This document shows, piece after piece, positions 3,842 through 64,000 of a stretch of 64,000 nucleotides of DNA. This DNA is from Escherichia phage ECp13. Numbering within the stretch: position 1 is the stretch's first letter; every line of letters starts with the position of its first letter. The notes beneath the pieces are model-generated. The model searched no databases and was not told where the DNA came from. It saw nothing but the letters and a program-made list of their open reading frames with translations. The translations under genes and the position numbers were made by a program. The stretch lies in the sequence record PP274704.1; one strand, 5' to 3'.

Positions 3842-5260
3842 ATGGCTTTTACAGTTGATATAACTCCTAAAACACCTACTGGAGTTATTGATGAAACCAA
3901 GCAGTTTACTGCTGCACCAAGTGGTCAAACCGAAGGTGGAACTATTACCTATGCTTGGAGTGTAGATAATGTTCCACAGGATGGAGCTGAAGCAACTTTT
4001 GATTATGTATTAAAAGGACCTGCCGGTCAAAAGACTATTAAGGTGGTTGCAACAAATACAGTTCCAGAAGCTGATCCTGAAACAGCAGAAACTACGACAA
4101 CTATCACAGTTAAAAATAAAACACAAACAACTACCTTGGCAGTAACTCCTGCTAGTCCTCCAGCTGGAGTAATCGGAACAGCTGTCCAATTTACTGCTGC
4201 CTTAGCTTCACAGCCATCGGGCGCAACAGCCACGTATCAATGGCACGTTGACGGTTCTCCTGTAAGCGAAGCAACTTCTGCTACATTCAATTACACTCCT
4301 ACCACAAGTGGAGTTAAAAAAATCAAGTGCATAGCTCAAGTAACTGCGGCAGATTATGATGCACTGAGCGTTACTTCTAATGAAGTGTCACTGACAGTTA
4401 ATAAAAAGACGCAGACAACTACCTTAGCTGTAACTCCTAATAGTCCTTCAGCTGGAGTAATTGGAACCCCAGTTCAATTTACTGCTGCCTTAGCTTCTCA
4501 ACCCGATGGCGCAACTGCTACATATAAATGGTATGTAGATGATTCTCAAATTGGTGGAGAAACTAACTCTACATTTAACTATACTCCAACTACAAGTGGA
4601 GTAAAAAGAATTAAATGTGTAGCGCAAGTAACTGCAGAAAATTACAATGAAAAGGAAGTTACTTCCAACGAAGTGTCACTGACGGTTAATAAGAAGACAA
4701 TGAATCCACAGGTTGCATTGACTCCTCCTTCTATTAACGTTCAGCAAGATGCTTCGGCTACATTTACAGCTAATGTTACTGGAGCACCTGAAGCAGCACA
4801 AATTACTTATTCATGGAAGAAAGATTCTTCTCCTGTGGAAGGGTCAACTAACGTATACACCGTTGACACCTCATCTATTGGAAGTCAAACTATTGAAGTT
4901 ACTGCTGTCGTTACAGCAACTGACTATGACAGTAAAACAGTTAAAGCAACAGGCCAAGTTCAGGTGACTGATAAAGTTGCTCCGGAACCAGAAGGTGAAT
5001 TGCCTTATGTTCATCCTCTTCCACATCGTACTTCAGCTTATATCTGGTGCGGTTGGTGGGTTATGGATGAAATCCAAAAAATGACCGAAGAAGGTAAAGA
5101 TTGGAAAACTGAAGATCCAGATAGTAAATACTACCTGCACCGTTACACCCTTCAGAAGATGATGAAAGACTATCCAGAAGTTGATGTTCAAGAATCACGT
5201 AATGGATACATCATTCATAAAACTGCTTTAGAAACTGGTATCATCTATACCTATCCATAA
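3842..5260 (+). CDS. hoc: Hoc outer capsid decoration protein with four Ig-like domains
   Basis: 472-aa ORF with repeated ~96-aa Ig-like modules (TTLAVTP...VQFTAALASQP...FNYTPTTSGVK...VSLTV) plus conserved C-terminal capsid-binding region; T4 Hoc is 376 aa. Confidence 0.85.
   Translation: MAFTVDITPKTPTGVIDETKQFTAAPSGQTEGGTITYAWSVDNVPQDGAEATFDYVLKGPAGQKTIKVVATNTVPEADPETAETTTTITVKNKTQTTTLAVTPASPPAGVIGTAVQFTAALASQPSGATATYQWHVDGSPVSEATSATFNYTPTTSGVKKIKCIAQVTAADYDALSVTSNEVSLTVNKKTQTTTLAVTPNSPSAGVIGTPVQFTAALASQPDGATATYKWYVDDSQIGGETNSTFNYTPTTSGVKRIKCVAQVTAENYNEKEVTSNEVSLTVNKKTMNPQVALTPPSINVQQDASATFTANVTGAPEAAQITYSWKKDSSPVEGSTNVYTVDTSSIGSQTIEVTAVVTATDYDSKTVKATGQVQVTDKVAPEPEGELPYVHPLPHRTSAYIWCGWWVMDEIQKMTEEGKDWKTEDPDSKYYLHRYTLQKMMKDYPEVDVQESRNGYIIHKTALETGIIYTYP
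4118..4693 (+). repeat. tandem duplication (2 x ~288 bp) inside hoc encoding two near-identical Ig-like domains
   Basis: Units ~4118-4405 and ~4406-4693 align at roughly 80% nucleotide identity by eye; protein repeats KTQTTTLAVTP...SNEVSLTVNKKT. Confidence 0.8.
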
Positions 5261-5264
5261 TCAT

Positions 5265-5290
5265 AAGGGCTTCGGCCCCTTTCTTCATTT
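5265..5290 (+). terminator. stem-loop (UUCG tetraloop) with U-rich tail after hoc
   Basis: GGGC-ttcg-GCCC followed by cctttcttcatttt, 7 nt after hoc stop. Confidence 0.4.
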
Positions 5291-5348
5291 TGAAAGCACA
5301 CAAAACACACTCATAAAATGATGTATATAATGGCACCAACTCGATAAC

Positions 5349-5564
5349 ATGAGATTGATTATGAGAACTGAGGTTGTGGTGTTTACACTCCATGAGTCTG
5401 GAAAGTCATTCATTGAAATTGCTCGTGAATTGAACTTACAGGCAAAAGAAGTGGCTGTATTATGGGCTCGAGCTATGACTGCTAAGAATAAATTTGAGAC
5501 TCGAGAAAAAGTTGTCTATAGAAAAAGACATATTAATAAAAAGGTGAAAAATGGAACAGTATGA
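5349..5564 (+). CDS. 24.3: small HTH-like protein, positional equivalent of T4 24.3
   Basis: 71-aa ORF; SGKSFIEIARELNLQAKEVAVLWARA resembles a helix-turn-helix. Confidence 0.6.
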   Translation: MRLIMRTEVVVFTLHESGKSFIEIARELNLQAKEVAVLWARAMTAKNKFETREKVVYRKRHINKKVKNGTV

Positions 5565-5829
5565 TCTTTATGAAAATGAATCTTTTGCTAATCAATTACG
5601 AGAAAAAGCACTTAAAAGCAAACAGTTTAAGCTAGAGTGTTTTATTAAAGATTTTTCAGAACTTGCTAATAAAGCAGCTGAACAAGGTAAAACATATTTT
5701 AGTTATTATTGCACTGCTCGCGATAAATTGATTACTGAAGAAATTGGTGATTGGCTGAGAAAAGAAGGATTTAGCTTTAAAGTCAATAGTGATCAGCGTG
5801 ATGGTGATTGGTTAGAAATTACATTTTGA
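5551..5829 (+). CDS. 24.2: hypothetical protein, positional equivalent of T4 24.2
   Basis: 92-aa ORF overlapping upstream gene; conserved position upstream of rnlB. Confidence 0.6.
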   Translation: MEQYDLYENESFANQLREKALKSKQFKLECFIKDFSELANKAAEQGKTYFSYYCTARDKLITEEIGDWLRKEGFSFKVNSDQRDGDWLEITF

Positions 5830-5838
5830 GGATTAATT

Positions 5839-6843
5839 ATGTTTAAAAAGTATAGCAGTCTTGAAAATCATTACAATTCTAAATTTATTGAAAAACTTTA
5901 TAGTTTAGGATTGACTGGTGGCGAATGGGTAGCTCGTGAAAAGATTCATGGCACAAATTTCTCATTAATTATTGAGCGTGATAAAGCAACTTGTGCTAAA
6001 CGTACTGGTCCTATTCTTCCTGCTGAAGATTTCTTTGGGTATGAAATTATTTTGAAGAATTACGCTGATTCCATTAAAGCAGTACAAGATATTATGGAAA
6101 CTTCAGCAGTTGTATCTTATCAAGTCTTTGGCGAATTCGCTGGACCTGGCATTCAGAAGAATGTCGATTATGGTGATAAAGATTTTTATGTATTTGACAT
6201 TATTGTTACTACCGAAAGTGGTGATGTGACTTATGTCGATGATTATATGATGGAATCATTCTGCAATACATTTAAATTTAAAATGGCTCCACTTTTAGGT
6301 CGCGGTAAATTTGAAGAGCTTATTAAATTGCCAAATGATTTAGATTCTGTCGTCCAAGATTATAATTTTACAGTAGACCATGCTGGATTAGTTGATGCAA
6401 ATAAATGCGTTTGGAATGCTGAAGCAAAAGGCGAAGTATTTACCGCTGAAGGATATGTATTGAAACCTTGTTATCCTTCTTGGATGCCTAATGGCAATCG
6501 CGTAGCTATCAAATGCAAGAACTCTAAATTTAGTGAAAAGAAAAAGTCTGATAAGCCTATTAAAGCTAAAGTTGAGTTGTCAGAAGCTGATAATAAATTG
6601 CTGGGAATTTTAGCTTGTTATGTTACACTGAACCGAGTAAATAACGTTATTTCTAAAATTGGCGAAATTGGTCCAAAAGATTTTGGAAAGGTGATGGGAC
6701 TAACGGTTCAAGATATTTTGGAAGAAACTTCTCGTGAAGGTATTACTCTAACTCAAGCGGATAATCCTTCTTTGATTAAGAAGGAATTAGTTAAAATGGT
6801 ACAAGATGTACTTCGTCCGGCTTGGATTGAATTGGTAAGTTAA
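5839..6843 (+). CDS. rnlB: RNA ligase 2 (Rnl2)
   Basis: 334-aa ORF with nucleotidyltransferase motif I KIHGTN; length and position match T4 RnlB. Confidence 0.9.
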
Positions 6844-6877
6844 ATAAAAAGGGACCTTTCGGTCCCTTTGTTTTATT
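6844..6877. terminator. bidirectional intrinsic terminator between convergent rnlB and gene 24
   Basis: GGGACC-tttc-GGTCCC hairpin flanked by A-run upstream and T-run downstream, exactly between the two stop codons. Confidence 0.65.
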
Positions 6878-8156
6878 CATCAATGATAATTTTTGGTAGC
6901 TTAACACCTAATAAAACAGACAAATCTGAACGACCCGCCATTTTATCCATGTCTCCACCATCAATTACTCTTGCTTCTTTTTCATCTTTTGCTACAGTGT
7001 AAGGATTTGCAGATAAAGCATATCTAACTAATAAACCGATAGATGGCTGCAAACTTTCTGGATCAACTACAACTTTAAATGCACCTACATGTTCAGGGTC
7101 ATCTAAGTCAAGACCTTCTGTATACGGAGCATAGAAAATTGACCCAACAATTTCTTTTTCACCGATATTTTCTACTACGCCAACGATTACATAATCTAAT
7201 GGGCTGTTGGTATCGCAATAAAGCGGTAAACCATTAGCTAAGAACCCGTAGGCATTTTGTGAAAGATATTTGTCATCTTCTGGTTTATGTTTTAACCAAC
7301 CTGATGCAGCAAGAATTGCAGCGGCACGAGCTGAAGCAACACAGAATGTTGCAGTATAAGTTGATTCTTTTTGGATATGCGAAACCATTTCACATACCAT
7401 TCGGTATAATGAACGACCAGCTTCAGGTGCAGATGCATAACTCAAATCAATGAATCCAGTATCAGTAATTCCTGTAACTTTATAGCGTTTTGACACTGTA
7501 ATCAAAGACTGCAGAATATCTTTATTGATTTCATCTGCCATTTCGGTTGCAAGCAAATCTTCCAAGAAATTAGGAGCATCGAATCCATTTGCTTCTAAAT
7601 CTTGTGCTAATTCAACTGTGATGCCAGTTTTAAGTTTACGAGATTTAACCGCGGTTTGCCATTTATTAATCTGGAATCTAGCATCCGCAATTTCACTATC
7701 AGAGCTTTCAAATTTGCTTGTTACTGCAGCATCAGAAAATAGACGAACCTTTAAAAGAACAATTGCAATCTGAAGAGCTAATTCTAAATCGCTTTCTTCA
7801 ATATCAGCAAATGGTGTATCTTCTAATACTTTATAAACGATATTATTATATTTGAATAAATCGCCTTTATTGAGAGTTAATTTAGACTCTTCTGTTAATT
7901 CTGTGATTTGTTCTCGGTCTACATACCCAGCTTCGCCGGCGTAAGTAGCACCAGTTTTAAATGTAAATTCGTTATCTGGGTTAAGGTATTTGATACCATA
8001 AAAAGCAGCAACAGGTTGATTAGTTCTTTGCGTTGCTACAATGTCAGAATATATTAATTTAGTGGTAGCGCGAGTCAAAGCAACGAGATTTGGGCGACCG
8101 ATTGAGTTGCTATTCGTTGTGGTTGATTCGCGCAGAAGTTCGTTGATTTTAGCCAT
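6873..8156 (-). CDS. 24: head vertex protein gp24
   Basis: 427-aa ORF, same length as T4 gp24; gp23-like fold residues; adjacent to gene 23. Confidence 0.92.
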   Translation of the reverse strand: MAKINELLRESTTTNSNSIGRPNLVALTRATTKLIYSDIVATQRTNQPVAAFYGIKYLNPDNEFTFKTGATYAGEAGYVDREQITELTEESKLTLNKGDLFKYNNIVYKVLEDTPFADIEESDLELALQIAIVLLKVRLFSDAAVTSKFESSDSEIADARFQINKWQTAVKSRKLKTGITVELAQDLEANGFDAPNFLEDLLATEMADEINKDILQSLITVSKRYKVTGITDTGFIDLSYASAPEAGRSLYRMVCEMVSHIQKESTYTATFCVASARAAAILAASGWLKHKPEDDKYLSQNAYGFLANGLPLYCDTNSPLDYVIVGVVENIGEKEIVGSIFYAPYTEGLDLDDPEHVGAFKVVVDPESLQPSIGLLVRYALSANPYTVAKDEKEARVIDGGDMDKMAGRSDLSVLLGVKLPKIIIDE

Positions 8157-8183
8157 TGCGCTTTCCTTTTGGTTTATATGATT

Positions 8184-8191
8184 TATTTATA
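8184..8191 (-). promoter_or_regulatory. late promoter (TATAAATA) for gene 24
   Basis: tatttata on plus strand, 28 nt upstream of gene 24 start (8156). Confidence 0.65.
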
Positions 8192-8204
8192 CCATAAAAA
8201 CAAC

Positions 8205-8226
8205 TAAAGGGACCCGAAGGTCCCTT
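8205..8226 (-). terminator. hairpin terminator/attenuator downstream of gene 23
   Basis: GGGACC-cgaa-GGTCCC palindrome at 8209-8224, followed on minus strand by a T-rich run. Confidence 0.55.
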
Positions 8227-8239
8227 AAATCGTCAAAGA

Positions 8240-9805
8240 TTAGATACCTTTAACATATACACGGCGGAAGTAAGCGTTTTTACCAAGGCTATTCAGAATA
8301 GAAGGCATACCGCTCTGGATGCGAGAAGCCGGAGCCTGAGCAGCGGATTCTGCAAATGGGTTGATACCGATACCGTAACGAGTTTTGAATCCCATTACTG
8401 GTTGGAAGTTCTTCGGATCGGAACCACGCAGCGGAGTCAGAGCTACATATGGAGCGTAGTAAATACCAGCATCCATTTCGTTCGGACCTTTATAACCTAC
8501 AGTGAAATAATCCTGTTTAGCATACTGGTCGATATATACACGGTATTTACCACCCAGAACACCAGCAAATACTGACTTAGTAGTATCAGTGTTAAAGCCG
8601 GTAGCCAGACCCTGTGCAGCATAAGAAATGCCAGTATCAACTGAAGCCAGAACGTTAACTACGTTACGGGAAGCGATAATGAAGTTACCTTCACCACGAC
8701 CGGTCTGACGAGCAATTTCAACTGCTTCTTTGTCAATCTGGAACAACAGAGCTTTAAAGGATTCACCCGCCCAGCGAGCACCACGAATATCAATCGGATC
8801 CTGGAAGTCAAACACACCAGCTTTAGAACCCGGAGTCAGGGTCATACCAGATTTACCAACCTGAGCTGAGTAGTTAATCCAATCAACAACTTCACGGTTG
8901 ATTTCCAGCATGATTTCGGTAGCCAGAATACCAGACAGTTCAGCATCAGCATCCATACCGTGAACAGCGCGGAGGTCTTGTGCTAATTCGATAGAGTAAG
9001 CAGCTTTCAGCTGGCGAGATTTAGCTTCGATAACTTGTTTATCGATACGGAAGCCCATTTCATTCCATGGGTTATCGGTAGAACCGTTGAAACCTTCCTG
9101 AAGTTCAGCGATAGAAGTAGCCATACCTTCAGCGATTTCTACCAGTACACCAGCTTCCATTTGTTTCTTAATTTCAGCATCTAATTTAGCTGCATCATCC
9201 GCAGTAGAACTAATTGTTACTTGAGCAGAAGCTTGCAGATACACAGTACCAGTGTCCTGGAAGAAGTGAGTATAGATATCACCTACTGTAGTTTGTGTAC
9301 TAGCAGCCAGAGCTGGGAATTTCTTAGCAGCACCCTGACCAGAGAACATTGCATCTGGACCATACATTGGGTGGAATGCTTCTTTAGCACCGGCAGCGAT
9401 TGGGTCTTTACCATATACTGCACGCAGTGCGAATACCTGGCCAGTCGGGCTGTTCATCGGCTGAACACCGCAAATGTCGAAAGCAATCAGGTTAGGAATA
9501 GCACGACGTACCATACCCATAACAGCTGGGCCAATCTGAGTTACTGCGCCAGAAGTCTGACCTGCAGCGATGTTGGTAGCATTGTAACCGTGGTCACCAC
9601 CGATTTCAGCTTCTGTTAAGAAAGAACCGAATGCCTGAGCAATTTTTTCGTCTTTATATTCCGGAGCTGTCTGGAAATCTTTTTCCTGGTTTTCAAAGAT
9701 TTTAGCGATAATCGCTTGTTTGCTATTAGCAATTTCCGGTAAACCTTCACCTTCCAGTAATGGCTTCCATTTGTTCAAAAGTTCAGCTTTAGTTTTGATA
9801 GTCAT
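8240..9805 (-). CDS. 23: major capsid protein gp23
   Basis: 521-aa ORF, length identical to T4 gp23; host-like GC-richer codon usage typical of this highly expressed gene. Confidence 0.95.
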   Translation of the reverse strand: MTIKTKAELLNKWKPLLEGEGLPEIANSKQAIIAKIFENQEKDFQTAPEYKDEKIAQAFGSFLTEAEIGGDHGYNATNIAAGQTSGAVTQIGPAVMGMVRRAIPNLIAFDICGVQPMNSPTGQVFALRAVYGKDPIAAGAKEAFHPMYGPDAMFSGQGAAKKFPALAASTQTTVGDIYTHFFQDTGTVYLQASAQVTISSTADDAAKLDAEIKKQMEAGVLVEIAEGMATSIAELQEGFNGSTDNPWNEMGFRIDKQVIEAKSRQLKAAYSIELAQDLRAVHGMDADAELSGILATEIMLEINREVVDWINYSAQVGKSGMTLTPGSKAGVFDFQDPIDIRGARWAGESFKALLFQIDKEAVEIARQTGRGEGNFIIASRNVVNVLASVDTGISYAAQGLATGFNTDTTKSVFAGVLGGKYRVYIDQYAKQDYFTVGYKGPNEMDAGIYYAPYVALTPLRGSDPKNFQPVMGFKTRYGIGINPFAESAAQAPASRIQSGMPSILNSLGKNAYFRRVYVKGI

Positions 9806-58541: not shown

Positions 58542-59551
58542 TGAAAACAGTAATGAAAAGCTATTTTGGTAGTCATCTTTATGGAACTTCTACTCCAGAA
58601 TCTGATGTAGATTTTAAAGAAATCTTTGTTCCTCCTGCTCGCGATATTCTTATCGGAAATGTTAAAGAGCATATGAGTAAAAACACTAACAACACATCAT
58701 CTAAAAACACTAAAGATGATATTGACCATGAACTATACAGTCTTAAATATTTCTTTAAATTAGCTGCAGATGGTGAAACTGTAGCATTGGATATGCTCCA
58801 TACTCCACCTGAACTAGTGGTTAAATCAGATTTGCCTGATGTATGGAAGTTTATTCAAGACAATCGTTCTCGTTTTTATACGACTAACATGAAATCCTAT
58901 TTAGGATATGTCCGCAAGCAAGCTTCTAAATACGGTGTTAAGGGTTCTCGTTTGGCCGCATTGCGTGATGTATTGAAAGTAGTTAATCAAATCCCCGATC
59001 AGTGGGTTGATTATCAAGAAGGAATCCCTGATAGACTTCGTCGTACTAAGGTAGAAGATATCAAACACAGACTCCCTGAAAATGAGTTCTGTGAATGGGT
59101 ATTCCATAATCATGAGAAAACAGGCCCACAAACGTTCTACACTGTGTTGGGTCGTAAATATCAGACAACACTTTCTCTTATTGAACTTAAGCAGTCACTG
59201 AACAAATTAGATGCTGAATACGGCGAACGCGCTCGTAAGGCTGAAGCGAATGAGGGCATTGACTGGAAAGCTCTGAGTCATGCTTGTCGTGGTGGACTCC
59301 AACTATTGGAAATTTACAAAACAGGTGACTTAGTTTATCCACTTCAAGACGCTCCATTTATTCTCGACGTGAAGCTGGGTAAACACCCATTTAAAACTGT
59401 TCAAGAGTTTTTGGAAGATGTGGTCGATCAAGTAGAAGCAGCATCCATTGAAGCTTCTAAGAACGGTATGCAGCAAAAAGTAGACATGGGTTTCTGGGAT
59501 GACTTCCTTGAGAGGGTTTATCTTGAAAACCATCGAAGTTATTATAAATGA
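58538..59551 (+). CDS. nucleotidyltransferase-fold protein (Pol-beta superfamily motif)
   Basis: 337-aa ORF; N-terminal YFGSHLYGTSTPESDVDF matches the G[GS]...D.D minimal NTase motif. Confidence 0.55.
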   Translation: MMKTVMKSYFGSHLYGTSTPESDVDFKEIFVPPARDILIGNVKEHMSKNTNNTSSKNTKDDIDHELYSLKYFFKLAADGETVALDMLHTPPELVVKSDLPDVWKFIQDNRSRFYTTNMKSYLGYVRKQASKYGVKGSRLAALRDVLKVVNQIPDQWVDYQEGIPDRLRRTKVEDIKHRLPENEFCEWVFHNHEKTGPQTFYTVLGRKYQTTLSLIELKQSLNKLDAEYGERARKAEANEGIDWKALSHACRGGLQLLEIYKTGDLVYPLQDAPFILDVKLGKHPFKTVQEFLEDVVDQVEAASIEASKNGMQQKVDMGFWDDFLERVYLENHRSYYK

Positions 59552-59553
59552 TA

Positions 59554-59580
59554 GGGAGCCTTCGGGCTCCCTTTTTATTT
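59554..59580 (+). terminator. intrinsic terminator after the NTase-fold gene
   Basis: GGGAGCC-ttcg-GGCTCCC hairpin followed by TTTTTATTT. Confidence 0.7.
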
Positions 59581-59600
59581 CAAAATTTTTTCACAAAACG

Positions 59601-59630
59601 GTTTACAAGCATAAAGCTTTATGGTACTAT
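59601..59630 (+). promoter_or_regulatory. early sigma70-type promoter (conserved module)
   Basis: GTTTAC (59601-59606), 18 bp, TACTAT (59625-59630); shares TGGTACTATACAACTATCAACT with the 43915 and 61040 promoters. Confidence 0.6.
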
Positions 59631-59664
59631 ACAACTATCAACTGATACGGATTTGGAGAATAAA

Positions 59665-60633
59665 ATGAAAACTGTAACTATCAATAAGGGTATCTACTTC
59701 GGTAAAGAAATCTCTGGAACTTTTGAGCTCTTAGGCGAATGGTTCCCAGATAATGCTCCGGTAGATGCACAAGGAGATGGTAAAGTTTTTGTTGAAATTG
59801 ACGGTAAACGTCGCGGTGTTTGGGTTTACAAATCAGATATTTCATATGATGGTGTAAAGGTTGAAGAAGTTAAAGAATCGTATGAAGATATGAAAACCCG
59901 CATTAATAAAAGATTTAATGTTATGGGAATGATGACGAATGGTATTATTAATGGAAATATTCGTTCATTGATTATCTCTGGTGCAGCAGGTATTGGTAAA
60001 ACGTATTCTTTAGATAAAGCTTTAAATAAAGCAAATGATATTGGATACATTGAATATAAAAGTATTAATGGTAAAATCTCTGGTATTGGTCTTTATGAGC
60101 AGCTTTGGAATAATCGTGAAGAGAATTCTGTCCTTTTGATTGATGATGTGGATGTTTTCTCTGATATGGACATTCTTAATCTTCTAAAAGCCGCTCTGGA
60201 CACCGGAGAGACCCGTAAAGTCTGCTGGAGCACTGCGTCTTCTTACTTAGAAGAAAAAGGCATTGAGCGTGAGTTTGAATTTAAAGGAACGATTGTTTTT
60301 ATCACAAACGTTGACATTGACCGCGAATTAGACCGTGGTACTAAACTTGCTCCACATTTACAAGCATTAGTGTCCCGCTCGGTTTATTTGGATTTGGGTG
60401 TTCACACTAATGAAGAAATTATGGTCAGGGTTGAAGATGTTATTCTTTCAACTGACATGATGCAAAAGCGCGGTCTTTCTGATGAAGAAACTTATAAAGC
60501 ATTATCATGGATGAAAGTTAATGTTAATCGTTTACGCAATGTTTCACTGCGTACTGCTCTTTATCTTGCTGACTTTATTATGACCGACAAAAACGGTTGG
60601 GAAGAAATCGCTGAGGTTACTCTTCTGAAATAA
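59665..60633 (+). CDS. AAA+ family ATPase
   Basis: 322 aa from ATG 59665 (RBS GGAGAA); Walker A GAAGIGKT, Walker B VLLIDDVD, sensor-like FITN. Confidence 0.6.
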   Translation: MKTVTINKGIYFGKEISGTFELLGEWFPDNAPVDAQGDGKVFVEIDGKRRGVWVYKSDISYDGVKVEEVKESYEDMKTRINKRFNVMGMMTNGIINGNIRSLIISGAAGIGKTYSLDKALNKANDIGYIEYKSINGKISGIGLYEQLWNNREENSVLLIDDVDVFSDMDILNLLKAALDTGETRKVCWSTASSYLEEKGIEREFEFKGTIVFITNVDIDRELDRGTKLAPHLQALVSRSVYLDLGVHTNEEIMVRVEDVILSTDMMQKRGLSDEETYKALSWMKVNVNRLRNVSLRTALYLADFIMTDKNGWEEIAEVTLLK

Positions 60634-61039: not shown

Positions 61040-61069
61040 GTTTACAAGACTATTCCTCTGTGGTACTAT
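61040..61069 (+). promoter_or_regulatory. early sigma70-type promoter (conserved module)
   Basis: GTTTAC (61040-61045), 18 bp, TACTAT (61064-61069). Confidence 0.6.
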
Positions 61070-61097: not shown

Positions 61098-61625
61098 ATG
61101 AACGCTAAAGATATTTTCAACTTGGTAAATTATAACGATGGTAAATTTAAATCTGAAGCACAAAGCAAGTTCTTTAATGACATCTCAATCGGAGGTGAAA
61201 TCACTGTTGATGGAGGACAAATTTACAAATCCCGTTGGAATTGGATCGTTATTATCGATGAGATCGGTATTGTAGAAATTTACAAGAATACGAATAAAAA
61301 TCGTACATTACACTGGTCTCGTGATACTAACGAACAGCACAAAAAGGATAAAGCATCTAAATTATCTCGTGTAACTCAAGAAGATATTGAGTTCATCAAG
61401 AAAGATATTTTAATGTATGATAACTTAATTGCTGAAGAGCAAGCTGTTATTGATAAATTTGACGAGATTAAAGCTTCTCGTGAAATTCCTGATTTTATGA
61501 AAGAATCAGTAAATGAACGATACTCTCTCATTTCAGAGCGTATTGAAACTTACAAAAAGCAAAGAGCTGAACGCCAAAATACTCTTCGGAAGTTTGAAGA
61601 ACGGTTAAAGACGGTACTCGCATAA
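61098..61625 (+). CDS. hypothetical protein
   Basis: 175-aa ORF with RBS GGAGGA. Confidence 0.5.
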   Translation: MNAKDIFNLVNYNDGKFKSEAQSKFFNDISIGGEITVDGGQIYKSRWNWIVIIDEIGIVEIYKNTNKNRTLHWSRDTNEQHKKDKASKLSRVTQEDIEFIKKDILMYDNLIAEEQAVIDKFDEIKASREIPDFMKESVNERYSLISERIETYKKQRAERQNTLRKFEERLKTVLA

Positions 61626-61680: not shown

Positions 61681-62082
61681 ATGAAACAGTTGATAATTAA
61701 AAGATTGAATTTATTGATATGTTGTTTATGTGTAGTAGTTGCATATGGTTATTACGCAATTAATGATTATATGCACTATAAAGATTATGATGTTACTGTA
61801 GTTAATACCATTACAGGAATACAAGGAAAAGGGTCTAGTTTATCGTTTATTGCCGTATATGAACTTAAAGACGGCTATAGATTTAGTGAATATATTTCCC
61901 CAGAGATGTATTCTTCAATAGAAAAAGGTGATAATATTACTGTAAGTTTACGTCCTTTCGACGTAAAACAGACGTGGTTTGATAATATTGTTTGGTTCTT
62001 TGGAATGGCATTAGTTCAGTCTATATGCGGTACTTATATAGTCTGTTCAATCTTATTTAGTGTAATTAGTAAAATTGAGTGA
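61681..62082 (+). CDS. membrane protein
   Basis: 133-aa ORF with N-terminal and C-terminal hydrophobic helices. Confidence 0.5.
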   Translation: MKQLIIKRLNLLICCLCVVVAYGYYAINDYMHYKDYDVTVVNTITGIQGKGSSLSFIAVYELKDGYRFSEYISPEMYSSIEKGDNITVSLRPFDVKQTWFDNIVWFFGMALVQSICGTYIVCSILFSVISKIE

Positions 62083-62089
62083 GGAAAAT

Positions 62090-62980
62090 ATGTCAGTAGT
62101 AATTAATAATGTCAATGCAGTAATTAAATCTTTAGTTAATAAAAAAATGATGAATGAATGGACTGTATTTCGCAGTGCAGAGCCAGATAAATTTTTTCAT
62201 AGATTTAACCCAACTTTGGATTTGAATGTTATCGACAGAGATGTTCATGCTGAAATTTTAGATAAGTTTAAAGTTGATATTGGATTTGGATTAGAAAAAC
62301 ATTTACAGCGAACAAATGGATCTGGAATGAGTTTATCTAATCGCATTATGAAAGCCCTTAATAAAATTGGAGCATTGTCTCGTATTAATGCAAGTGAAAT
62401 CCTTCGTAATTATAATAAAGGATATGACCTTTATGGTCGACTGATGCCAAAATTATCATTCGATCAAATGATTACGGATTTGTGGGAAAATCAAAGACGA
62501 TTATTAGCATTAGGCGCTCGATTAGCTAAAGGTCTAGATAAACAAATGATTTTTAAGACCAATAATACAGAAGACCTTAAATGCTTTAAATTTAGTACTC
62601 GTGGCATTGATTATTATATCAGAGCTCACTCTACAGATTATGTCAATATGGGGCATCATCTCTGTTTAGCTTTTGAAGTTTTAAAAGAAGCTGGAACATT
62701 AGAATATTCATCTGGGGCAAAATGTCCTATTGGTTCAAGTTGTATTTTAATTTATCGCCCGGATGAATCCAGTTCAACTACATTGCCTACGAAACCTGTA
62801 CCAGTTCGTAGTAACGAAAAACATTCTGAACAAATTGATTATTTTAATAAACAGATTGAAGAGCTGAATATTTCTATTCAACAATATGATGATGAAATTT
62901 TCAGACTATCTGGACTGAGTAGTAAAGCTAAATCTGAGCGTGAAAAGTTAATTAAAATTGTCGATTTACTTAAATCTTAA
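62090..62980 (+). CDS. hypothetical protein with C-terminal coiled coil
   Basis: 296 aa from ATG 62090 (RBS GAGGAAA); track ORF starts at a TTG at 62075. Confidence 0.5.
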   Translation: MSVVINNVNAVIKSLVNKKMMNEWTVFRSAEPDKFFHRFNPTLDLNVIDRDVHAEILDKFKVDIGFGLEKHLQRTNGSGMSLSNRIMKALNKIGALSRINASEILRNYNKGYDLYGRLMPKLSFDQMITDLWENQRRLLALGARLAKGLDKQMIFKTNNTEDLKCFKFSTRGIDYYIRAHSTDYVNMGHHLCLAFEVLKEAGTLEYSSGAKCPIGSSCILIYRPDESSSTTLPTKPVPVRSNEKHSEQIDYFNKQIEELNISIQQYDDEIFRLSGLSSKAKSEREKLIKIVDLLKS

Positions 62981-62988
62981 GGAATACC

Positions 62989-64000
62989 ATGAAAACTCGT
63001 TCTCAAATTGAAGATATGGTTCGTACTGCCAGCGATACTCGTAATGTTATGACATTTTTGTGCGAAAATAATTTAGACCCTGATAAAGTTAATCGTGCTA
63101 TTCATCACTTTAAATATCTAAATAGCAGTGAATGGGTGAGTAATTTTAGTAAAGCGGGGTATATTACACAAATGACGGCTCGTGAGCAGCTCACAGATTT
63201 TTGTAAAACTATTGATTATAAAAATCCTCTATTTGTTCAAGGCGTTGGTCAAAGTAAGGTCGATTTATCGTCTGGATTTTTTAATCCAAATCATTATCGT
63301 ATTGAATGGAGATTTATTGCTCTATTCCGTAAACAATTAAAGCAAATTTTATCAACTGCGAGTCGATTAAAAGGTTCTGATATTAACTTAAAGAACCTGA
63401 AATTTGATGGTTATACTCTTCAGATGGAAGTAAGACCATTAAAAGAAAATAACAGAACTGCGCGAATTAGCTTTAAACCTAATACAAAAAATTCTCTTTC
63501 AATTTGCGAATGCCTTAAATCACAGTTGACAGAAGCATTTAAGTATATGGATGTTGTTGCCGCTGTTCAGTCTAAGATTTTACCTCGTTTTGAGCGATTT
63601 AAATTAGACACAACAACGTATGAACTTGATATGTTCGTTTCATTTAAATACGATTTTTTGAGAAAGGACGAAATCCCGCAAGAGAAAAAGCAGGAAGTGC
63701 AAGATATCTTAAATTTATCCAATTACTCATCAAACGATCCTAAATTTTGGATGTATAGCTCAGGTAATAAGGATGCATGGAAATTCAATAAAGCGAATTT
63801 TCTTCCTATTGAAAATCCGAGTCTTAAACCTGTTGAAAAATGGCACGCCGATGCGATTGAGAATTCTCTTAAAGCAGTAGATGATGAACTCGTTAAAGCA
63901 ACTAATGAAGTGTTAGAAGCTGAAAAGATGCTAGAACAAGCTCAGTCAAGGGTTCAAAATCTGACAAAGCAACGTTCTAAACTGAACAATGCACTAAATG
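62989..64000 (+). CDS. hypothetical protein with C-terminal coiled coil, 3'-truncated by window edge
   Basis: Open frame from ATG 62989 (RBS AAGGAA) to the window end with no stop, more than 337 codons; absent from the ORF track because no stop is in view. Confidence 0.5.
   Translation, partial: MKTRSQIEDMVRTASDTRNVMTFLCENNLDPDKVNRAIHHFKYLNSSEWVSNFSKAGYITQMTAREQLTDFCKTIDYKNPLFVQGVGQSKVDLSSGFFNPNHYRIEWRFIALFRKQLKQILSTASRLKGSDINLKNLKFDGYTLQMEVRPLKENNRTARISFKPNTKNSLSICECLKSQLTEAFKYMDVVAAVQSKILPRFERFKLDTTTYELDMFVSFKYDFLRKDEIPQEKKQEVQDILNLSNYSSNDPKFWMYSSGNKDAWKFNKANFLPIENPSLKPVEKWHADAIENSLKAVDDELVKATNEVLEAEKMLEQAQSRVQNLTKQRSKLNNALN

Follow-up and report, generated by a model that had tools for sequence, protein, structure and literature searches.

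What are the two large proteins encoded side by side at the very end of the stretch of Escherichia phage ECp13 DNA that we analysed (record PP274704.1; 64,000 nt, hereafter the window), and are they related to each other? The initial annotation, made from the letters alone, had described an open reading frame (ORF) of 296 amino acids (aa; ORF1) and an adjoining one of at least 337 aa (ORF2) as proteins of the nrdC-proximal early region that end in heptad-rich coiled coils, carry no recognisable motifs and may form a duplicated or functionally paired set. We found that both are real genes, the orthologs of phage T4 nrdC.6 and nrdC.5, that ORF2 corresponds to a gene with a published role against the Dsr1 defence of E. 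coli, and that the two proteins are likely paralogs. The function of NrdC.5 was known already; what is new is the proposal that NrdC.6 joins NrdC.5 in one family with a modular architecture.

The last 3 kb of the window were 97.4% identical to Shigella phage pSs-1 and the window end matched 698 T-even-type phage records, which identified the window as Tequatrovirus DNA. Its end falls within a T4-like block of nrdC accessory genes, which in T4 and annotated relatives reads mobD, nrdC.11, nrdC.10, nrdC.9, nrdC.8, nrdC.7, nrdC.6, nrdC.5, nrdC.4, nrdC.3, nrdC.2, nrdC.1, nrdC; the window holds the order from nrdC.10 to nrdC.5, and nrdC.4, nrdC.3, nrdC.2, nrdC.1 and nrdC fall past its end, which bears out the location first proposed. 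Synteny around nrdC.5 was the same in T4, pSs-1 and vB_SsoM_113. By homology and synteny, ORF1 is the intact 296-aa nrdC.6 coding sequence (62090..62980; this and all other window genes and features below lie on the + strand), and ORF2 comprises the first 337 of 340 codons of nrdC.5 (62989..64000), with its ATG at 62989 and a reading frame open to the window end. Because nrdC.5 of pSs-1 encodes 340 aa (pSs-1 locus 5990-7012), ORF2 is short of only 3 codons and the stop. Each gene is preceded by a ribosome-binding site, read from the sequence, that overlaps the stop codon of the gene before it: GAGGAA at 62081..62086 for nrdC.6, overlapping the nrdC.7 stop, and AAGGA at 62979..62983 for nrdC.5, overlapping the nrdC.6 stop. 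A start of ORF1 at TTG 62075, as given in the ORF list (62075..62980), was rejected in favour of ATG 62090, because the GAGGAA site precedes this ATG and all homologs begin MS(V/Q)(V/A)IN. Only 8 nt separate nrdC.6 from nrdC.5, and such tight packing suggests that the two genes are probably co-transcribed.

ORF2 was 94% identical to T4 NrdC.5 (NP_049703) over 337 aa and matched the Pfam family DUF7235 (PF23882) with 410.1 bits over model positions 1-304 of 307, the gathering cut-off of that family being 30 bits. Its full-length identity, equal length and equal genomic position, between nrdC.6 and nrdC.4, established it as the ortholog of T4 NrdC.5, from which it differs by changes at 19 of the 337 positions, the last 3 codons falling outside the window. 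Searches of 5.8 billion proteins returned 56-87 relatives of NrdC.5, and a NrdC.5 profile run against 1.84 billion representative proteins found 15 at E ≤ 0.001, which makes the family a narrow one by sequence. This profile search reached a single-copy protein of the type found in Klebsiella phage Marfa (P0202) via its tail, and no member of NrdC.4, NrdC.3 or NrdC.6 at E ≤ 0.001.

The published genetics of nrdC.5 come from Srikant, Guegler and Laub (eLife 2022; PMC9391042), in which it is an early, nonessential T4 gene. A T4 clone with accessory genes deleted could no longer plate on E. coli ECOR17, plating was regained once dsr1 was deleted from ECOR17, and plasmid-borne dsr1 shielded strain MG1655 from the deletion clone, which was rescued on MG1655 carrying dsr1 by nrdC.5 alone, supplied in trans on a plasmid (PMC9391042). 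Dsr1 is a SIR2-type NAD-depleting (NADase) defence of E. coli (PMC9391042), and according to a 2026 preprint the phage major capsid protein triggers both its tetratricopeptide repeat (TPR) sensor and that of Avs7 (PMC12803255). Our literature search turned up no account of how NrdC.5 works. The published result is for the T4 allele, and by its similarity ORF2 would be expected to share this anti-Dsr1 activity. For neither gene did a homologous T4 protein with a known housekeeping role emerge, the known function, that of NrdC.5, being accessory counter-defence.

ORF1 was 97% identical to T4 NrdC.6 (NP_049704) over aa 1-259 and, like it, lies between nrdC.7 and nrdC.5. It matched PHROG 2257, which has no function label, over its full length (1-296; E 6.3e-151), and both this full-length profile match and the kept position downstream of nrdC.7/nrdC.8 place it in the NrdC.6 family, of which 105 homologs were found among the 5.8 billion proteins searched, all in T-even-like phages, with a precomputed Pfam family, PF26899. 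ORF1 had no DUF7235 match and by gathering score is not a member of that family, and in our local libraries PHROG 2257 was its only match, with none in Pfam or NCBIfam. The early impression of two proteins without recognisable motifs thus stood for ORF1 but not for ORF2, with its Pfam family and characterised T4 ortholog. A full-text literature search turned up no study of NrdC.6.

Conservation of NrdC.6 between genera was mosaic, identity being 64-71% for the central helices and 56-71% for the tail but about 20% for the N-terminal region and about 21% for a beta domain, and the invariant columns were mostly hydrophobic or basic residues. The conserved helical core spans aa 86-160 (62345..62569) and carries the motifs LSRxNAxxILxNYNKGYDLYGR and NQRRLLALGARLAxGxDKQMxFKTN. 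The T4 reference genome NC_000866 carries a 1-bp deletion, GCTGAATATT to GCTG-ATATT (window 62866-62869; T4 locus 8067-8894, minus strand), that frameshifts nrdC.6 into a 275-aa form in which an out-of-frame tail replaces the coiled coil, whereas the intact 296-aa protein is encoded by the window, by pSs-1 and by re-sequenced T4 (MT984581). Since MT984581 and the window are intact, either a sequencing error or a strain variant probably accounts for the NC_000866 gene ('31.7 kDa protein'). An argument that NrdC.5 acts without a NrdC.6 coiled coil because T4 NrdC.6 is frameshifted was dropped, given the intact 296-aa gene of MT984581.

Both proteins end in a coiled coil, as the initial annotation had it. 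We defined a coiled coil as a predicted helix containing 4-5 or more unbroken heptads that are hydrophobic at a/d, and both tails qualify. In NrdC.6, aa 242-296 follow one heptad register with a/d residues NHIFILIYILSARLVL, a hydrophobic fraction of 0.75 that was reached by 0 of 1000 tail shuffles; in NrdC.5, aa 282-340 do so with a/d residues EAILVLAVALAVLRLLL and a fraction of 0.88 (0 of 1000 shuffles). The register is therefore unbroken over the last 55-59 residues, about 8 heptads, of each protein, and the AlphaFold2 (AF2) models place helices there (NrdC.6 242-274 and 278-295; NrdC.5 282-336). A cruder sliding-window heptad score over the whole protein did not put ORF1 above shuffles, so the support for its coiled coil rests on the tail-specific test together with the AF2 model. 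On the DNA, the NrdC.6 tail (aa 242-296; 56-71% identity between genera) occupies 62813..62977, with the motif PVPVRSNEKH before it, and the NrdC.5 tail (aa 282-337), cut by the window end, occupies 63832..64000, with KPVEKWH before it. NrdC.4 and NrdC.3, which at about 310-335 aa are similar in size to ORF1 and ORF2, also end in heptad tails terminating in hLK.

Direct comparison of the two proteins was negative: BLASTP of ORF1 against ORF2 returned nothing (E 2.2), and hhalign alignments of NrdC.5 with NrdC.6 (local, global, low-mact, and with a merged C3+C4+C5 profile) gave E values of 0.02-0.2, which are not significant. In a scan of 424 six-frame ORFs, taken from the window and from three loci, with a hidden Markov model of NrdC.3/4/5, the top non-members were the NrdC.6 ORFs, at weak E values of 0.13-2.6 that we treat as suggestive. 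The rest of the block and more distant phages supplied the links. NrdC.3 and NrdC.4 are clear paralogs by sequence (hhalign 97%), and NrdC.4 and NrdC.5 are probable ones (77-86%, E ~1e-5, ~235 columns). Klebsiella phage Marfa (YP_009850271, 315 aa) and Enterobacter phage IME523 (QEA10564, 335 aa) each have one related gene, located immediately upstream of an nrdC.2 homolog, and a profile of these two proteins matched NrdC.5 (hhalign 98%, E 1.5e-13), NrdC.4 (95%), NrdC.3 (92%) and NrdC.6 (73%, E 3e-5, 215 columns). IME523 alone matched NrdC.6 at 90.6% over the last 58 columns, in the tail, and in BLASTP its protein was 24% identical over 192 aa to NrdC.6 of phage VR7 (E 8e-7; small database). 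Against DUF7235 the two single-copy proteins scored 47 bits (Marfa) and 31 bits (IME523), both above the cut-off, via their tails. By sequence as well as by predicted structure, these proteins bridge NrdC.6 and NrdC.5 from the same neighbourhood, but as one gene rather than an array and at only 22-35% identity to the window proteins.

A common order of motifs ran through NrdC.6, NrdC.5, NrdC.4, NrdC.3, Marfa and IME523, namely (F/L)xKxGxLSRxxAxxxLxN(F/Y), LLxxAxRLxxGxD, P(V/I)ExxH and a tail motif (Q/E)RxKL...hLK whose Arg sits at a heptad core position. T4 NrdC.4 and NrdC.3 resemble ORF1 and ORF2 in this motif order, in size and in the tail, but their identity to them is at or under the pairwise detection limit. 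The proposed duplication is thus supported as an ancient paralogy, by the bridging proteins, the common topology and the structural matches described below, and not as a recent one, in view of the null direct comparisons; it also reaches past the two genes, to NrdC.4 and NrdC.3 beyond the window.

The AF2 models agreed with this reading. The NrdC.6 model had a mean predicted local distance difference test (pLDDT) score of 74 and the NrdC.5 model one of 61. Each placed a helix (NrdC.6 124-145; NrdC.5 105-128) before a beta-beta-alpha-beta-beta domain, in which NrdC.6 has its first two strands at 166-171 and 174-179 (166-179), a middle helix at 187-200 and the next two strands at 205-210 and 218-222 (205-222), and NrdC.5 has strands at 144-149 and 157-162 (144-162), a helix at 169-185 and strands at 190-201 and 209-219 (190-219). 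A disordered linker (NrdC.6 227-241; NrdC.5 225-281) and the C-terminal helix (242-295; 282-336) follow. The domain covers 62585..62755 in nrdC.6 (aa 166-222), where it is the variable part noted above, and 63418..63645 in nrdC.5 (aa 144-219; block pLDDT 66-91). In Foldseek searches of predicted viral structures (BFVD), the NrdC.6 model found the IME523 protein (E 2.7e-8, probability 1.0) and also proteins of ~300-370 aa from T4-like phages of Pectobacterium, Acinetobacter, Citrobacter, Erwinia, Yersinia, Klebsiella and Serratia; four entries, from Mineola, Cronus, PM2 and PS2, were matched by both models with probabilities of 0.99-1.0. With the same order of elements and common Foldseek targets, the models suggest that NrdC.6 and NrdC.5 share a fold. 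Neither protein had a solved relative in the PDB by sequence or by fold (best fold E 0.01, template modelling (TM) score < 0.3), and the PDB matches to H-NOX, BcsD and designed proteins at that level were discarded as noise.

The NrdC.6 and NrdC.5 families were confined to T4-like phages among the 5.8 billion proteins, and the nrdC.8/.6/.5/.4 synteny was kept in Tequatrovirus and Gaprivervirus, as it was in the other loci of T-even type that we examined; in RB69 (Mosigvirus) the order was nrdC.8, nrdC.6, nrdC.5 and then nrdC.3. Members were often damaged or rearranged. A 299-aa protein (P0161; longest contig 167,058 nt) is a natural in-frame fusion of NrdC.5 (aa ~145-267) to NrdC.3 (aa ~135-308), with nrdC.4 deleted and the junction at a short common stretch, FNKVN/FNTQVNMLFKH, which shows recombination between paralogs. 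NrdC.6 of Shigella phage Sf25 (P0001, 378 aa) carries an internal tandem duplication of ~82 residues (IRAHSTDY...KQIEEL repeated), nrdC.4 is split into two ORFs of 193 and 158 aa in a T-even genome from IMG/VR (L009, 7950-8982), and the RB69 reference nrdC.5 (5001-5903) is frameshifted, with an out-of-frame C-terminus relative to other Mosigvirus copies (P0197). A 173-aa protein (P0191; ENA contig L022, 803 nt) joins an N-terminal part of 119 aa, for which tblastn against the phage collection gave no match, to a coiled-coil tail of the NrdC.5 type (DUF7235, 48.6 bits); either tail-module shuffling or an assembly chimera could account for it. Frameshift, fusion and duplication are typical of accessory counter-defence genes, and the mosaic conservation and frequent decay and rearrangement of the NrdC.3-6 genes look like the signature of an arms race.

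We favour, with a probability of roughly 0.6, the explanation that NrdC.6, NrdC.5, NrdC.4 and NrdC.3 are oligomeric, non-enzymatic proteins, made early, that inhibit host defence sensors. They would form one superfamily of T4-like phages, kept as a single copy upstream of nrdC.2 in distant phages and expanded in the T-evens into the tandem array nrdC.6-.5-.4-.3. Their common build would consist of a variable helical N-terminal region, a conserved helix pair with LSRxxA...L.NF and LL..A.RL..G.D, the small variable beta-beta-alpha-beta-beta domain, a disordered linker, PVE..H and a coiled coil of ~50 residues ending in hLK. NrdC.5 would then be a stoichiometric inhibitor that is made early, is oligomerised by its coiled coil and binds Dsr1, probably at the TPR sensor, so that Dsr1 would already be blocked by the time the major capsid protein, a late product, could act as its trigger. 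NrdC.6 would be a similar inhibitor of a different host defence, its variable N-terminal and beta modules serving as recognition surfaces. That NrdC.5 acts by binding and not by catalysis is suggested by several observations: neither NrdC.5 nor NrdC.6 showed a catalytic domain in Pfam or NCBIfam or a PDB relative, neither had in those two libraries an NAD-salvage or ADP-ribose-processing domain of the NARP1, NARP2 or NARP3 kind, and the invariant residues are mostly hydrophobic or basic. A functional analogy, with no homology claimed, is offered by DSAD1 of Bacillus phage SPbeta, which is reported to be a phage protein neutralising a SIR2 NADase defence with a virion-protein sensor; DSAD1 acts on DSR2, triggered by the tail tube protein, whereas NrdC.5 counters Dsr1, triggered by the major capsid protein.

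Several points weigh against this explanation. The published experiment covers the function of NrdC.5 only, and the counter-defence role of NrdC.6, NrdC.4 and NrdC.3 is one that we infer; direct binding of NrdC.5 to Dsr1 is likewise proposed from DSAD1 and DSR2 by analogy. The link between NrdC.6 and NrdC.5 is transitive, the best direct profile comparisons having given E values of 0.02-0.12. Foldseek TM-scores of 0.3-0.5, although expected for flexible multi-part models, are not strong, and the NrdC.5 model is of low confidence (mean pLDDT 61); since the models were compared through common targets, paralogy is likely rather than proven. Finally, the specificity of the window allele could differ from that of T4 NrdC.5 through the 19 changes in 337 positions.

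The alternative that survives best concerns NrdC.6, which could be an early host-takeover or regulatory factor, for instance a modulator of a host enzyme, that has its ancestry but not its function in common with NrdC.5. The literature search found no functional data on NrdC.6, and its central motif, conserved at 64-71% between genera against 25-30% anywhere in NrdC.5, hints at a conserved and possibly housekeeping host target. We nevertheless consider it a minority possibility, because the gene belongs to a nonessential accessory block in which the characterised member acts in counter-defence, because two of the four NrdC.6 modules are hypervariable and because a natural variant with an internal duplication is known.

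A bolder form of the favoured explanation would make nrdC.6-.5-.4-.3 a diversifying battery of oligomeric sensor blockers, with each paralog directed against a different host immune receptor. These receptors may be various Avs7/Dsr1-class TPR sensors of the major capsid protein, fused to varied effectors, and the conserved coiled coil would provide avidity or mixed oligomers. At this level of detail we regard the proposal as speculative and rather unlikely.

The functional pairing raised at the outset would take the form of one hetero-oligomer, with NrdC.6 and NrdC.5, and perhaps NrdC.4 and NrdC.3, as subunits joined through their similar coiled coils. Tequatrovirus, Gaprivervirus, Dhakavirus and Mosigvirus all keep the adjacency and order of the genes, which are closely packed and likely to be transcribed together, and the tails agree in length and register and have a conserved Arg within the heptad core. 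Against this, NrdC.5 supplied alone from a plasmid was enough to rescue the deletion clone on Dsr1 cells (PMC9391042), which argues against an obligate pair; Marfa and IME523 have one member each, and natural genomes show the loss, splitting or fusion of single members, leaving such a complex improbable.

It is similarly doubtful that the bodies of the proteins are not homologous and have in common only a mobile C-terminal coiled-coil module acquired by recombination, with any further resemblance due to chance or to a simple alpha/beta topology. Coiled coils readily give spurious matches in profile comparisons, the strongest cross-family signals do lie in the tail (the 58 columns between IME523 and NrdC.6, and the DUF7235 matches of Marfa and IME523 in their last ~70 residues), and P0191 carries a NrdC.5 tail on an unrelated N-terminal region. 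The match of the Marfa/IME523 profile to NrdC.6, however, extends over 215 columns, that of IME523 to VR7 NrdC.6 over 192 aa including LxLGxRLxxG...FKT, and the Foldseek alignments over more than 300 columns with probability 1.0, while motif order is constant in all families and the order of secondary-structure elements is equal before the linker.

NrdC.5 might also beat Dsr1 indirectly, by shielding or chaperoning the major capsid protein or by altering NAD+ metabolism or the timing of infection. The published evidence is genetic only (PMC9391042) and other phages beat Dsr1 by rebuilding NAD+ (NARP3, PMC13464706), but we give indirect action little credence, as NrdC.5 resembles no NAD-salvage enzyme or catalytic domain, is early where the capsid protein is late, and has in DSAD1 against DSR2 a known precedent, for a defence sirtuin, that is reported to work by direct binding. 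Mimicry of a virion protein by NrdC.5 lacked support, the Foldseek matches to tail-completion and tail-terminator proteins being too weak (E 0.02-0.07).

Elsewhere in the block, NrdC.8 (61098-61625, +, 175 aa) ends in a charged helical tail, …QRAERQNTLRKFEERLKTVLA, in which the heptad signal is weaker (8 of 1000 shuffles). The NrdC.5 model matched a 175-aa protein of Klebsiella phage KPV15 in Foldseek (E 5e-3), and hhalign of NrdC.8 against the NrdC family profiles found no link; NrdC.8 may be a short relative of the NrdC.5/NrdC.6 family. Upstream of nrdC.8, a consensus scan picked out a promoter-like site (TTTACA, 17 nt, TG-TACTAT; 61041..61069), a candidate early promoter of an nrdC.8-.7-.6-.5 transcription unit for which the evidence is weak, because the scan gave 24 sites in total against 20.1 in shuffles. 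The nrdC.10 homolog (59548-60633, +) is listed as an ORF of 361 aa, which begins upstream of a strong terminator-like hairpin (59553-59572), against 322-325 aa in annotated homologs; its protein bears a Walker-A-like GAAGIGKT and is, on that account, probably an ATPase. Homologs of NrdC.3-NrdC.11 are labelled 'thioredoxin' in many GenBank records; we obtained no thioredoxin domain match, and the label apparently spread from the name of the neighbouring nrdC.

Few inhibitors of SIR2/NADase defence are known, and ORF2 is orthologous to one of them. If NrdC.6, NrdC.4 and NrdC.3 share the architecture of NrdC.5, an orphan gene becomes a family with a conserved scaffold and variable modules, and the best-studied phage gains three concrete candidate anti-defence genes. 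Such an architecture would predict that specificity resides in the N-terminal and beta modules and assembly in the coiled coil, and would explain the frequent deletion, fusion and frameshift of the nrdC block in T-even genomes. If, further, each paralog does block a different immune receptor, NrdC.6 would count as a new anti-defence protein whose class of target is defined.

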